64,000 nucleotides of DNA from Octopus vulgaris (taxonomy: Eukaryota). Both the position numbers and the translations under genes were made by a program. The notes beneath the pieces were generated by a model. That model had not been told where the DNA came from. It saw only the letters and a list, made by a program, of their open reading frames with translations, and searched no databases. How positions within the stretch are numbered: the stretch's first letter is position 1; the number at the start of each line of letters is the position of its first letter. The stretch covers positions 10,478,001 to 10,542,000 of the forward strand of contig OX597828.1 of NCBI GenBank assembly GCA_951406725.2, given 5' to 3'. This document shows positions 40,655 to 58,233 of the stretch, in pieces.

Positions 40655-42775
40655 TATTGATTGATTGATTGATTGATTCTAGTTTCAGCTTATGAGCTGT
40701 GGCCATGCTGGGGCACCGCCATTTGGTGTTGCTACTTGGTTTCACTTCACGAGAGCTTTCTAGCAACTGCCATTTGGTGCATGAGAGAGTTCGATGCAGC
40801 TGCCCTCATCTGCCCCTCCTGCCGTGAAGTTGGGACATCTGACAGGAAGAGATCCAGCTTCATTTTAAAGACATCTGCATCCACCCCATGCAGGTCTCTC
40901 AGGTTCTTCGGGAGGATATTGAAGAGCTGTGGGCCTCGGAAGCCCAGGCTATCACAGAATCTTGTCCTACATCTTGATGGCAAGTTTGGAGTCCTAGGCA
41001 CCACGCAGTGGCGCCCAGTTCTGGCATTTGCGTAACTCTCGATGCCAAAGTTCAGGACACTTCCCTCCAGGATCTTCCAGATGTATATTATGGCATATCT
41101 TTCCCGCCTACGCTCCAGGGAATATAGTTTTAATCTCTTGAGTCTTTCCCAGTAGCTTACATTCTGCATAGAGGCTATCTTCTTCGTGTAGCTACGTTGG
41201 ATCGCCTCGAGCTCTGTGATCAACTTGACACTGGATGGTGACCATAACTGAGAGCAGTAGTCAAAGTGGCTTAGGACAAGTGTCCTCCAGAGGACCATCA
41301 TGGTTTCTTGTTCTCTTGTTCTAAAGGTTCTGAGGATCCATCCGGCCAGTCGTCTACATTTTATTGCCAATTTAGCAACATGTACACGAAAGGTCGCGTC
41401 ATCACTTATGTAAATACCTAGGTCACGCACTGATTGTGCCTCTGGGATTGCTATTCCTCCGGGTCCAGTGTATTCATTGGGTATTGCATTTAGTTTTGCA
41501 TGCTGATAGTATAGAGCTTGAAACTTTTCAGCATTGAACTGCATGCTATTCTTTTCGGCCCACTTGTATATTTTGTCTAGCTCACATTGCAGGTGTTTAG
41601 TGTCCTCAGGGTTCTGTATTGCCTGTGAAACTTTTGTATCATCTGCATAACTTGTGATCGTGGCTCTCTGCGTGGCTGAGGGCATGTCTGAGAGGGCCAT
41701 TATGAACAGTAGTGGTCCCAGAACAGTGCCCTGCGGAACACCGCTCACTATTTGCGTGTTAATGGAAGTGGCCCCATTGGCTACTACCACCTGACTTCTA
41801 TCTTTCAGAAAGTCATGAAGCCATTCTCCCAGTTTTCCAACTATGTTGAGATCACGCAGTTTGTGACATATCATTCCATGATCGACTTTATCAAAAGCCT
41901 TTGCAAAGTCGAGATATATCACTTCCACATTTGAGTGGTTGAGCAGCCGTTTCAGCACCCAGTCATAGTGTTGTAGGAGCTGAGTTAAACAGCTTCTCCC
42001 TGGTCGGAAACCATGTTGGGTATCGGGCAGCAAGTCATTCTCTTCAAGGAAGGTGATCAGCTTCCTTCCGACTATTCGTTCCATGACCTTGCTGATGTGT
42101 GAGGTCAGAGAGATAGGTATATAGTTCTTGGCTTCCGCTCTGCTACCTCCTTTATGAATGGGGCATATTTTACCTTCCTTCAGTTTTCTTGGAAGTTTGC
42201 CAGCTGCAAGGAAGCTCTGAAAGAGGAACTGCAGTGGTCTTGCTAGGACTCTCTTACATGCTTTTAGGAGGATTGCCGGGAATCCATCGGGGCCAGTAGC
42301 TGAGTCTGTTTTCATTTCATCTATAGCCTTGATTACATCGTCTTCCTTTATATCGATGCAATCTATCGTCGCCGCCTCTGATTTTATATCTGCAGTGGTA
42401 AAAAAGTCAGTTGGATTGGTGATTTGGAGATGCCCAAGGGGTGGAGTGAAAACACTCTTGAATTGCTCATTCAGTATTTCACTTACCCTCATTGGTTTTC
42501 CTGTAAGTGTGCCATCCTTTTCGAGGAGTGGCCCTATTCTACAGTGCACCGTAGCTGTTTCTTTGGCATACCTGTAGAATGCTCTGGGGTTAGATTTTAT
42601 GTTGTCTATAGCCCAGGCTTCTTTGTCTGCTCTTTCCTTTTCATGGGAGAGTTGCAGACATTTTTCGATTTCCAACAGTTTTATTTTTAGGCGGGACTTT
42701 TCACTGCTTTCAATCTGTTTGTTTAGGCGATTTGAAAATTTTGTACGCCGGGCGATTTGAAAATTTTGTACGCCG
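40655..42775 (-). mobile_element. Young 5'-truncated CR1-group (CR1/L2-like) LINE with 3' UTR and (ATCA)n tail, inserted in a TA-rich microsatellite
   Basis: Contains the RT ORF, a short 3' UTR with a terminal stem-loop and a tetranucleotide tail (gatt)n on the plus strand. Both sides are TA-rich. Confidence 0.9.
40747..42750 (-). CDS. LINE ORF2 reverse transcriptase, N-terminally truncated (endonuclease missing)
   Basis: 642-aa ORF whose frame stays open upstream to ~42750. Motifs: [91 protein letters not shown]. Confidence 0.9.
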
Positions 42776-42793
42776 TATATATATATGTATATA

Positions 42794-42908
<115 letters not shown>

Positions 42909-45000
42909 ATATATATGTATGTTTATAAATATATATATATACTCACACACGCACATACATATATATTCACATAAATTGCTTTGTTCCTGAAGAAATACGT
43001 TCTATTGCTCAAGTAGTAATACGGCTAAAATGATATATGTGACAGAAAATCCAATAAGGAACATGTGTAATGTCTGAGAAACATGCAATATAAAATGTAT
43101 TAATGCTGAACTAAACTGCAGGTGCACTTATAATCTTCTCGAACTGAAGACTTATAAGCGAAAAGCTAAATGGAAAACAACGACAAAAAAATACTTGCTT
43201 GTCTCCTCATTAAATTGGACAGAAGGAGAGGGAGGAATAAGAACGAGCGTGTGAGCTGGATCTATGATAATTGTGAAGGAGCAAAACGTGCTTCGCACTT
43301 ATTTGCGTAATGTTTCTGATGCGATATGCAGTTATATACATTATTTAAGAAATAACAGAAGATTCATCATTGTAATGGGGATCATTGAAAATTTATTGTT
43401 TCACTTTTGCTCAGCCAATACAGAGATCAGTATTAATGTTTAATATCCGATGGACGCACGAACAAGCGATATTCTCCACTTCTATTCTCAATTTGCCTTC
43501 GTTCTTCTTTTCCTACTCCTTCCCTCCCCCCCTCATCTTTCTAGTCTTCATCACAATCTCATTCTTCTTTATCTTCCGAGCATCAACATAACGACTTAAA
43601 GTTTGCCACACCAACTCGTTAAACATGTTAGGATCCGATCACATAAAAACATCTGATACTTCTAACTTCCTTTCTTATTTCTAATGAAGGATTAAATATA
43701 AATGACATGGTATTGTGTGTCGAAATTGCGCGGGAAGTTAGCCTCCATTTAGTTGATAATGGATTCCATCTAAATTGTTTGTTCTCTGCCGCATTCAGAG
43801 TTAAAATGCAGACCGATTTGAATATTATTCCTGACGAATGATAACTGTTCGTCTATTGTGCAGTATATTGATGCCTTCTGAGCTTTTACAAAATAATTCT
43901 ATAACTCTAAATTAAAATATATATATTTATTCTCATATTTCAGAGGCACCATTTGTAAGATAATGGTCTTTAATCGGTTTCACTTTTCTAAGTTCATTAC
44001 TAGTTATATCAACAACGTCGGCCTATCAAAATCAAAACTGACATTCCACAATGTATAATTTCTAAATGTAATAACTGTAAAACATATTCTTCAGTTTCTA
44101 CACATCAAATGTTCTCCTGGGCATGAAACTACTCGTTTCAATGGTAAGATAGTAATTTCTGACATTTATAACTTTCTCAAACATATCGAGGTGTATGCAG
44201 TGAACGAAATGATTCTAAGCGAAAATAAAGAGCTCCGCCAACTTGAAAATATTTCCATGGTGAGCTCCGTTTGTCTGCATAAACAAGATAGTTTTATTAT
44301 GTCTGTATCACACACTAGATTTTATTTGGCCATATTAAAAACATGATAGTACTTAGTTTCGTTCTCAAAATATCTGAGTTAATATTTTCTCTTTGTAGAC
44401 ATAATAGACGATATAAGAAGTAATAATAAATATTGTATGCTTCAAATACTTTAATTGCGCTCAAAGAACATAAATACTGAAGAAGTATGATGTTATAACA
44501 CCCAAACTATTCTTATTACTGTTCATTATTTACTTTTGCTGGAATATACTCAGTATGTAATATCATTTTAGACAGGTATACTTAGAAGTCACTCAGTTAT
44601 ATACAGGAGTTGTATTTGAGAAAACGTTATATGAAGCATCATATCTGTTTCATCACACCGCTTCTCTTTAGAGGCATCGATATATGACAACAAGAGAAAA
44701 AATATTGTTAACAGTAATTCTACATTAAAATAAGTATCTACAGCCACTTTAGTAGTGTTTCCTTGCTAACTACTTCTGCATTTAATGAAATAAAGCAAGG
44801 AGAGTGAAGGGTCACATTTTATATTCTAATATACTCCATAGTAGTTACATTGTTGAGAAAAGAACACAATTAGTTAACAACAATACTTCTATATTACACC
44901 AGATACGGATGCTGCCGTGTAAATCTATACACTAAAATTCTTATTCCCGACTGATAAGTATTGAACTATAGTAAGTAGTAATAGTATCGTTGTAGTAGAA

Positions 45001-56582: not shown

Positions 56583-57229
56583 AGAACTCTTAGCAGAGGA
56601 TAGCTAGAGACCGATTAATAGCCACTGATCCAGGTATTCTAGATTGCATAAATGGATATGAGAAAGCATTTAGTCTTCAGAATTGCATTGATATACAGTA
56701 GATTGTCAAGGACTCGCAATCTCACTTGTCTATCTAAGAAATAACGAATAAGAAATTATGATCAAAAGGATATTCTAGGGAACGAGAAAATGCTTTGCAG
56801 CACGCCTGTTTTATGATTGCAAAGAAAAAAAACAAAACAAAACAAATTCGAGTGATAGCTTAAGAAATTAGTTAAACTAGTGATAAAGATCATCACCTGC
56901 AGTCTGGCATGTGAAGTTCATAAATTATATATGGAAACACACACACACGCACACTGTATGAAAATAACACTAATTTTATACTGTACTACTGGACATTTTG
57001 TAGACATTTATATCCATACACACACACATATAAATCTATCTATCTATCTATATATATATATATATAGTGGTCGTATACCGTCAACTCAATGTGACAGTCC
57101 CGTAAAGGAATTACACCACCGCCATTTAGCCCTAGGGAACGTCGACGTCTCCTCTCGGCTTTGACACATTTTCTGCGTCCTTATATTTGCAAAGGGGAGG
57201 CAATCACCCCCGCAAGCCAGGACAAGGCA

Positions 57230-57275
57230 CCTGAAGACATATGTTTCTGAGTGTATTGCTCATCGTCAGTTAAGG
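57230..57275 (-). ncRNA. Minimal type-I hammerhead ribozyme
   Basis: CCUUAA-CUGACGA-UGAG caauaca CUCA-GAAA-CAUAUG-UC-UUCAGG. It has a perfect core, a 4-bp helix II, the palindrome ACAUAUGU, a GUC triplet and a helix I with 5/6 pairs. Confidence 0.8.
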
Positions 57276-57475
57276 GTAGCCAACCTCGCTCGCTGAGATG
57301 ACCGCAACCTCTCTGCAAATATATCATATTATCAGTAAAATTTATTTACTGTTCACCGAAATTAGAAATATTGAATTTCTAAATGTCTCATAGAGACATA
57401 AGCGGTGGTGGAGCGATATAGTGGTCGTATACTGTCAACTCAATGTGACAGATAAAAAAAAATATATAACGATGA

Positions 57476-57598
57476 CTAATTCCTCAAAGCTTGTAATCTT
57501 CGAGTAAGGTCATCTTCTTTAACAGAATCTGCAGTAACTGTTGATCTAATGGAGCCTGAAGCAGGGTTCAGATCTTTGAGCTGGTCTATCATCTCCAG
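57476..57598 (-). pseudogene. CHMP1A: Captured fragment of a CHMP1A-like (ESCRT-III, Did2/Vps46) mRNA: last 40 codons plus stop
   Basis: Translates to LEMIDQLKDLNPASGSIRSTVTADSVKEDDLTRRLQALRN*. Compare the recalled human CHMP1A end GLEVLDQLSQLP...EDQLSRRLAALRN*. The MIM1 motif D/ExxLxxRLxxLR is intact. There is no splice acceptor upstream. Confidence 0.8.
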
Positions 57599-57835
57599 GA
57601 ATTACACCACCGCCATTTAGCCTCTGCCTTGCAAATATAAGGACACAGAAAATGTGTCAAAGCCGACAGGAGATGTCGATGTTTCCTAGGGCTAAATGGC
57701 GGTGGTGTAATTCCTTTACGGGTCTGTCACATTGAGTTGACGGTATACGACCACTATATCGCTTCACCGCCGCTTATTTCTCTCTGGGATATTTAGAAAT
57801 TCAATATTTCTAATATATATATATATATATATACA

Positions 57836-57923
<88 letters not shown>

Positions 57924-58233
57924 CACCTTACATATACATATATATATATATGCAAACATCTTTTCATTTGTCTTGCTAGCTTACGTTCTGGCGTATGCTG
58001 AATTTTCTTGAGAACAATATTTTCTTAGTTGTGAGACCATATGTTGTCTATATCAAGCATATTGGATGTCCCGTTAGAGGTCATCCCACTTATATGTATG
58101 CAATATAATTTTTCTGAATCTTCAGATTTTCTCAGTCTACTAGGCCACTGATTTGAAATTTATATTAATCAAATTAATATTCAATTTTTCATCCCTATTA
58201 TTTAAATTTATATATACACATTAACATATATTT

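Follow-up and report, generated by a model that had tools for sequence, protein, structure and literature searches.

A partial retrocopy of spliced CHMP1A mRNA within a hammerhead-motif repeat of Octopus vulgaris

The non-LTR retrozymes of animals consist of non-coding tandem units of about 150-450 nt with a type I hammerhead motif, and they have been proposed to be non-autonomous derivatives of Penelope-like elements (PMC7229834; 10.64898/2026.07.22.740005). The anatomy of Penelope-like elements includes 5' truncation, partial tandems, an inverted 5' copy, TA targets, and short duplications, and their transposition cycle has been called still undefined (PMC8557442). Mobilization of host genes by Penelope-type elements has been described in Adineta vaga, where a whole, intron-keeping gene lies between two pLTRs; self-priming on an antisense template was proposed to explain the retention of introns (PMC3846280). 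Pieces of host transcripts are also found in other settings. Retrocopies made by template switching in LTR elements are truncated at both ends, replace element sequence, and show microsimilarity at their junctions and no poly(A) (PMC5131818). Class 2 insertions and the repair of breaks with reverse transcription products place spliced cDNA of 100-400 nt at breaks anywhere, with a small deletion, short microhomology, no duplication, and no poly(A) (PMC5110952, PMC4516963). In the diamondback moth, the partial host-gene cDNA of Pxyfem is located within mobile-element sequence, is multicopy, and gives rise to small RNAs (PMC9674220).

In this study, a window of 64,000 nt from Octopus vulgaris (OX597828.1, positions 10,478,001 to 10,542,000) was analysed; it is AT-rich and dense in repeats, and all coordinates given without a contig are window positions. 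At one locus a 354-nt repeat is split by a piece of spliced CHMP1A cDNA. The sequence of the repeat fits the non-LTR retrozymes in size and in its type I core and helices. In contrast to those units, the copies found here mostly comprise one or two truncated units with inversions. The two same-sense hammerheads used as the criterion of an "active" retrozyme occur at just 3 of 94 loci (the present locus has one), and captured mRNA is not mentioned in the accessible text of the retrozyme reports (PMC7229834; 10.64898/2026.07.22.740005). As in A. vaga, host sequence is framed by direct and inverted Penelope-type repeats, but here it is a 145-nt spliced piece that splits a single unit (PMC3846280). 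The features listed above for LTR retrocopies are all shared, but the host is a non-LTR, non-coding hammerhead repeat and no further rounds of copying followed (PMC5131818). The same is true of the features listed for class 2 insertions and break repair, except that the present piece lies beside an inversion point and in the polarity of the element RNA (PMC5110952, PMC4516963). Unlike Pxyfem, the insert exists in one copy (PMC9674220). No report of spliced mRNA inside a non-LTR retrozyme was found among the titles and freely accessible passages covered, which included PMC9977147. The locus appears to be a variant of known retroposition, in which the spliced mRNA in a hammerhead repeat would be the new part.

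The element lies between two (TA)n microsatellites. The left one (57040..57066) is the likely target site and priming end, and the right one occupies 57811..57950. The order between them, based on repeat alignment, is as follows: a full 354-nt unit (unit 1, 57063..57416) with its hammerhead motif on the minus strand; a 35-nt arm of a truncated second unit (57417..57451, minus strand, unit positions 320-354) on the 3' side of the insert; the foreign piece (57453-57596); a 26-nt arm of the second unit (57597..57622, minus strand, unit positions 286-311) on the 5' side, which ends at the inversion point; and an inverted, 5'-truncated copy (57623..57814, plus strand, unit positions about 216-354 and then 1-56), which is placed head-to-head and lacks a hammerhead motif. 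The insert is thus 26 nt from the inversion point of the element, and it has the same polarity as the hammerhead strand. The initial annotation described the second copy of the 354-bp repeat as split with a loss of about 8 nt. The split was found as described, between tgtgacag (ending at 57451) and agg-aattacacc (starting at 57597), with 7-8 repeat bases missing and none duplicated. The second unit, however, is not whole; it is limited to the 35 and 26 nt around the insert, followed by the inverted copy, and it has no ribozyme motif.

A search of the octopus genome with the 147 nt of the insert gave three candidates, all of which were scored: the window itself and two pieces on contig C3. Insert letters 1-101 matched C3 over 101 nt (100%, E 3e-44) and letters 100-145 over 46 nt (98%, E 4e-13), and these two high-identity matches rule out a chance similarity. 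On the minus strand, 57453-57599 corresponds to the last two CHMP1A exons, joined exactly across a GT-AG intron of 1,635 nt. The captured 3' part of the penultimate exon (57498..57599, minus strand) is 100% identical to G000:C3:135185217-317. It is followed, across an exon-exon junction at 57498/57497, by the start of the last exon (57453..57497, minus strand; 98% to G000:C3:135183538-583), which includes the coding end, TAG (57478-57476), and a short 3' UTR reaching to a U-tract; one letter of this piece differs from the gene. Because the intron between these exons is absent from the copy, the insert is cDNA. The removed intron had been missed in the initial annotation, and it shows the cellular mRNA origin which that annotation proposed.

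The sequence, the position, and the peptide of the insert are also as first reported. Positions 57598-57479 (minus strand) encode LEMIDQ...LQALRN followed by TAG, identical at 40/40 residues to the C-terminus of a protein named CHMP1a of Octopus bimaculoides (P0001; Pfam PF03357). The parent exon is 98% identical to the same protein. CHMP1A parentage is supported over the paralogue at 106.1 Mb of C3, which shows only 45-60% identity to P0001; this CHMP1 paralogue extends over G000:C3:106134262-106140482. Weak matches only were obtained in a PDB search (CHMP1A, E 0.21; Did2, E 0.67), and a Pfam search with the peptide and the parent exon returned no relevant family. The assignment to CHMP1A made earlier, which called for a CHMP1-family match, is upheld by these results.

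The locus could also have been the true CHMP1A gene, with upstream exons splicing into the insert. This reading was rejected. In a protein search with all 27 candidates scored, upstream CHMP1A exons were located on C3, and the window held residues 161-201 only; therefore the window does not contain the real gene and the insert is single. No host exon was evident by eye in the list of open reading frames of the window. Besides the gene there is one copy of the insert (3/3 DNA and 27/27 protein candidates scored), and the suggestion that the chimera might be multi-copy is not supported. As expected of a retrocopy, the parent gene lies elsewhere and the intron has been removed in the copy. No poly(A) and no target-site duplication surround the insert, as they would in a classical processed pseudogene made by LINEs. 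We conclude that spliced CHMP1A mRNA left one partial retrocopy here, the insert, and that the locus is a verified molecular fossil that is probably inert.

At the 5' junction, the mRNA and the repeat share a 3-nt microhomology (57597..57599), seen both in sequence comparison and in contigs of a short-read run. On the 3' side, copying ceased where a genomic U-tract of 11 letters ends (one letter is changed in the copy), and one untemplated base (57453) follows. Inverted repeats and (TA)n tracts are difficult to assemble, and a misassembly, or contaminating cDNA joined into the repeat, was considered as an alternative. Four public short-read runs (X1, X3, X4, and X9) were compared with the locus. 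Two contigs of X1 agree with the window at every letter: one of 130 nt spans the exon junction, and one of 87 nt spans the 5' junction together with the inversion; the latter links the insert to the inversion junction. Their depths were 36.5 and 15, respectively, relative to 20.2 for the flank. Since the left flank of X1 differs from the window at 2/364 letters, X1 represents at least another haplotype. On the other side, these contigs reach beyond the exon junction and the 5' junction by only 28-30 letters, below a bar of 31 letters, which would be expected from assembly with 31-letter words, and the 3' junction is not among the 32 pieces listed of 2,610 in X1. In X9 the gene contig begins exactly at 57498 with extra depth there, which is a hint only. 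X3 and X4 gave gene-type contigs with the flank uncovered, and hence no proof of absence. An intact target without the insert was not seen among the joints listed in the four runs, of which X3 and X4 had no flank coverage. Given the spanning contigs, an artefact of assembly, which had been named as a possible objection to the original reading, is hardly credible.

It had further been claimed that the mRNA piece sits inside a self-cleaving mobile RNA. The locus provides little for this claim. A script motif match identified a type I hammerhead motif at 57230..57275 (minus strand), with cleavage predicted after GUC at 57236. It includes the CUGANGA core, helix II, GAAA, and a palindromic helix III; helix I has one U-C mismatch. 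Among the 86 family pieces examined by script, the core is intact in 68 and a 6-bp helix I is present in 73; in the family, helix II closes with U-A or C-A. The motif is located in unit 1, downstream of the insert, and it is the only same-sense hammerhead of the locus. Release of a unit needs two hammerheads. Rfam gave no hammerhead match at the locus at either threshold, and the 61-nt motif is not predicted to fold as a monomer ribozyme (z 0.38). Type I hammerheads with a palindromic helix III belong to the dimer-dependent type (PMC4209133). Failure to fold as a monomer is as predicted for a motif of the dimer type, yet it is no evidence for it.

The 354-nt repeat was found at no fewer than 2,047 and 2,311 candidate places, respectively, in two genome searches. 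The top 40 full-length matches of unit 1, itself excluded, are 89-95% identical to it. The family was sampled from 150 loci, 94 of them distinct, taken from top-scoring matches and so biased to intact copies. Both orientations are present in 41 of the 94 sampled loci, a (TA)3 flank in 52, and adjacent duplications of 9-15 nt in 10. Inversion junctions are head-to-head in 41 of 42 cases, and 11 of these 41 have 5-100 extra letters. 5' truncation and partial tandems were also observed, and the mean difference between repeat pieces of the same locus is 6-7%. The outer 3' ends of the 94 loci form two clusters, one at unit position 354 (36 loci) and one at 55-59 (38 loci); neither coincides with the predicted cleavage site near 181. 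Both clusters adjoin TA-like letters, and annealing to the target may thus have provided the primer. The partial tandems, the head-to-head inverted 5' copy, and the microsatellite targets indicate that the repeat is probably a non-autonomous Penelope-like element. One sampled locus (L032; G000:C6:39.90 Mb) contains a pair of elements in mirror-image arrangement, separated by 263 nt; both have an inversion of their own.

No mRNA-like insert was detected in the 93 other loci of this biased sample, in which only captures with repeat on both sides are detectable. Gaps of more than 20 nt are present in nine loci, including the one described here. The insert and the gap of locus L021 were searched against the genome; on visual inspection, the others were taken for other repeats, spacers, or stutters. 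Among inversion junctions, that of L131 shows a short repeat motif stuttering over 58 nt, and L109 has a gap filled by an unexplained piece of 27 nt. L021 was considered as a second capture and rejected: the 852-nt piece (L021:558-1409), positioned exactly at the inversion junction, is the 3' end of a young LINE-like family whose members are 98-99% identical, and it is younger than the repeat. An 11-nt duplication surrounds the whole composite and none surrounds the LINE piece, which is probably a later insertion. A young LINE fragment also occurs in the window itself (40747-42942, minus strand), as a stop-free frame of 731 codons that matches the reverse transcriptase domain PF00078 (E 2e-28).

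The inserting enzyme is presumably a reverse transcriptase of the Penelope type. Penelope elements are abundant in this genome according to PMC13282606 as well. A genome search for GIY-YIG domains listed 148 matches of 6,136 candidates, many of them in 781-aa frames together with reverse transcriptase (RT). This abundant family, with intact RT + GIY-YIG frames at L180:2244-4586, L183:767-4467, L185, and L186, was considered as the autonomous partner and set aside, as no sequence in common with the repeat was found in the loci compared; the repeat was absent from 30 GIY-YIG loci taken from the 148 matches listed of 6,136. L183, L185, and L186 also have an overlapping upstream frame of 430-479 codons, which could not be placed clearly in any Pfam family. 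Penelope elements have a single ORF, and an additional one is unusual for them. Fragments of another Penelope-like family, with a GIY-YIG domain and an upstream cysteine motif, were identified at L067:2716-3186 and L014:337-1032 (minus strand), within about 1 kb of repeat copies and across (TA)n tracts, in 2 of the 94 loci. They too have no sequence in common with the repeat; because they share its targeting, the family they represent is a candidate partner.

We think it probable that the insert arose when target-primed reverse transcription of the hammerhead repeat switched templates twice, late in first-strand synthesis, and that the copy is inert. A nick in the left (TA)n would prime cDNA synthesis on hammerhead-sense repeat RNA, and the plus strand of the window would be the new strand. 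After one unit and 35 nt, the enzyme would jump to the U-tract of the CHMP1A 3' UTR and copy 145 nt of mRNA across the exon junction. It would then return to the repeat RNA via the 3-nt match and halt after 26 nt. The opposite target strand would prime a second cDNA, to which the first would be joined head-to-head. Because it has just one hammerhead motif, the chimera could not be excised as a unit or a circle, which would explain why it failed to spread. Such co-integration is favoured by the collinearity of the insert with the hammerhead strand and by its distance of 26 nt from an untidy inversion point. Only one such event is known, however, and the partner element was not found among the loci compared.

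The junctions also fit a break patched with cDNA. In this alternative the element was inserted first, and a later break was patched with CHMP1A cDNA, or a short-armed chimeric cDNA was recombined in. Class 2 templated insertions are marked by a microdeletion, by microhomology, and by an untemplated base (PMC5110952), and the same marks accompany the capture of spliced mRNA at breaks in mouse zygotes (PMC4516963). A random patch, on the other hand, would have no reason to fall 26 nt from the inversion point or to take the polarity of the hammerhead, and no joint without the insert was seen at this locus among those listed in X1 and X9. The age of the insert was also compared with that of its host. 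In favour of the patch, the insert is nearly identical to the gene, whereas 15/195 letters differ between unit 1 and the inverted copy; moreover, none of the 61 letters of the arms shows a rare difference, and one subfamily site distinguishes the arms from the remainder of the locus. With 1 difference in the 145 letters of the insert and 9-17 rare differences in 610 letters of the repeat (thresholds 2-10%), P(<=1) is 0.37-0.09; at rare-variant rates the insert is not significantly younger than the element. When all 28 differences from the majority in the 610 letters are counted, P(<=1) is 0.009, and when insert and arms (1/206) are compared with the rest, the Fisher P is 0.30-0.03 depending on the threshold; both results speak against co-integration. 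Scoring a variant as common to other loci undercounts young mutations through recurrence, and for this reason a range is reported for the age test. The sameness of the parent is in part due to coding constraint, which does not act on the copy. The initial proposal of a template switch during Penelope-type reverse transcription stands as the best mechanism, with its Penelope part drawn from structure only, and we regard a later patch as an unlikely though serious alternative.

The chimera might also be transcribed and functional, supplying either small RNAs directed at CHMP1A or a peptide of 38 residues that ends in the MIT-binding helix and competes for VPS4. The insert contains an intact frame of 38 codons, from an ATG at 57592 to the stop, that ends in the CHMP1A tail, labelled MIM1 in the initial annotation. 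CHMP1A tails are bound by VPS4 (PMC9477494), and silencing from partial retrocopies has a precedent in Pxyfem, although that precedent involves multicopy arrays and the insert here is single copy (PMC9674220). The frame, however, reproduces part of the parent frame exactly, and it has stayed open because the copy is faithful and young. The RNA of the locus is predicted to fold into a long hairpin (-224 kcal/mol), but the CHMP1A part loops out of the predicted stem, and double-stranded small RNAs would be expected to come from the repeat and not from the gene. In addition, an inverted copy precedes the insert, which lies where the element is truncated on its 5' side and has no known promoter, and with a single hammerhead motif no circle can carry it. 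Function of either type is very unlikely.

A single and probably inert copy has little biological weight alone. A spliced mRNA piece in a Penelope-like repeat is, however, a likely marker of the direction of reverse transcription. An mRNA exists as sense RNA only, and for this reason the first strand at this locus would have been primed at the outer (TA)n on hammerhead-sense RNA. If this is true, the polarity of the insert speaks against the antisense self-priming model of PMC3846280, and a catalogue of captures over thousands of copies could test that model from genomes alone. Whether reverse transcription of retrozyme and Penelope elements generates partial retrocopies that are spliced and lack poly(A), each capture recording the polarity of its template, is in our opinion an evenly balanced question. 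The insert illustrates how exonic sequence can be shuffled by hammerhead repeats where a genome has many of them.
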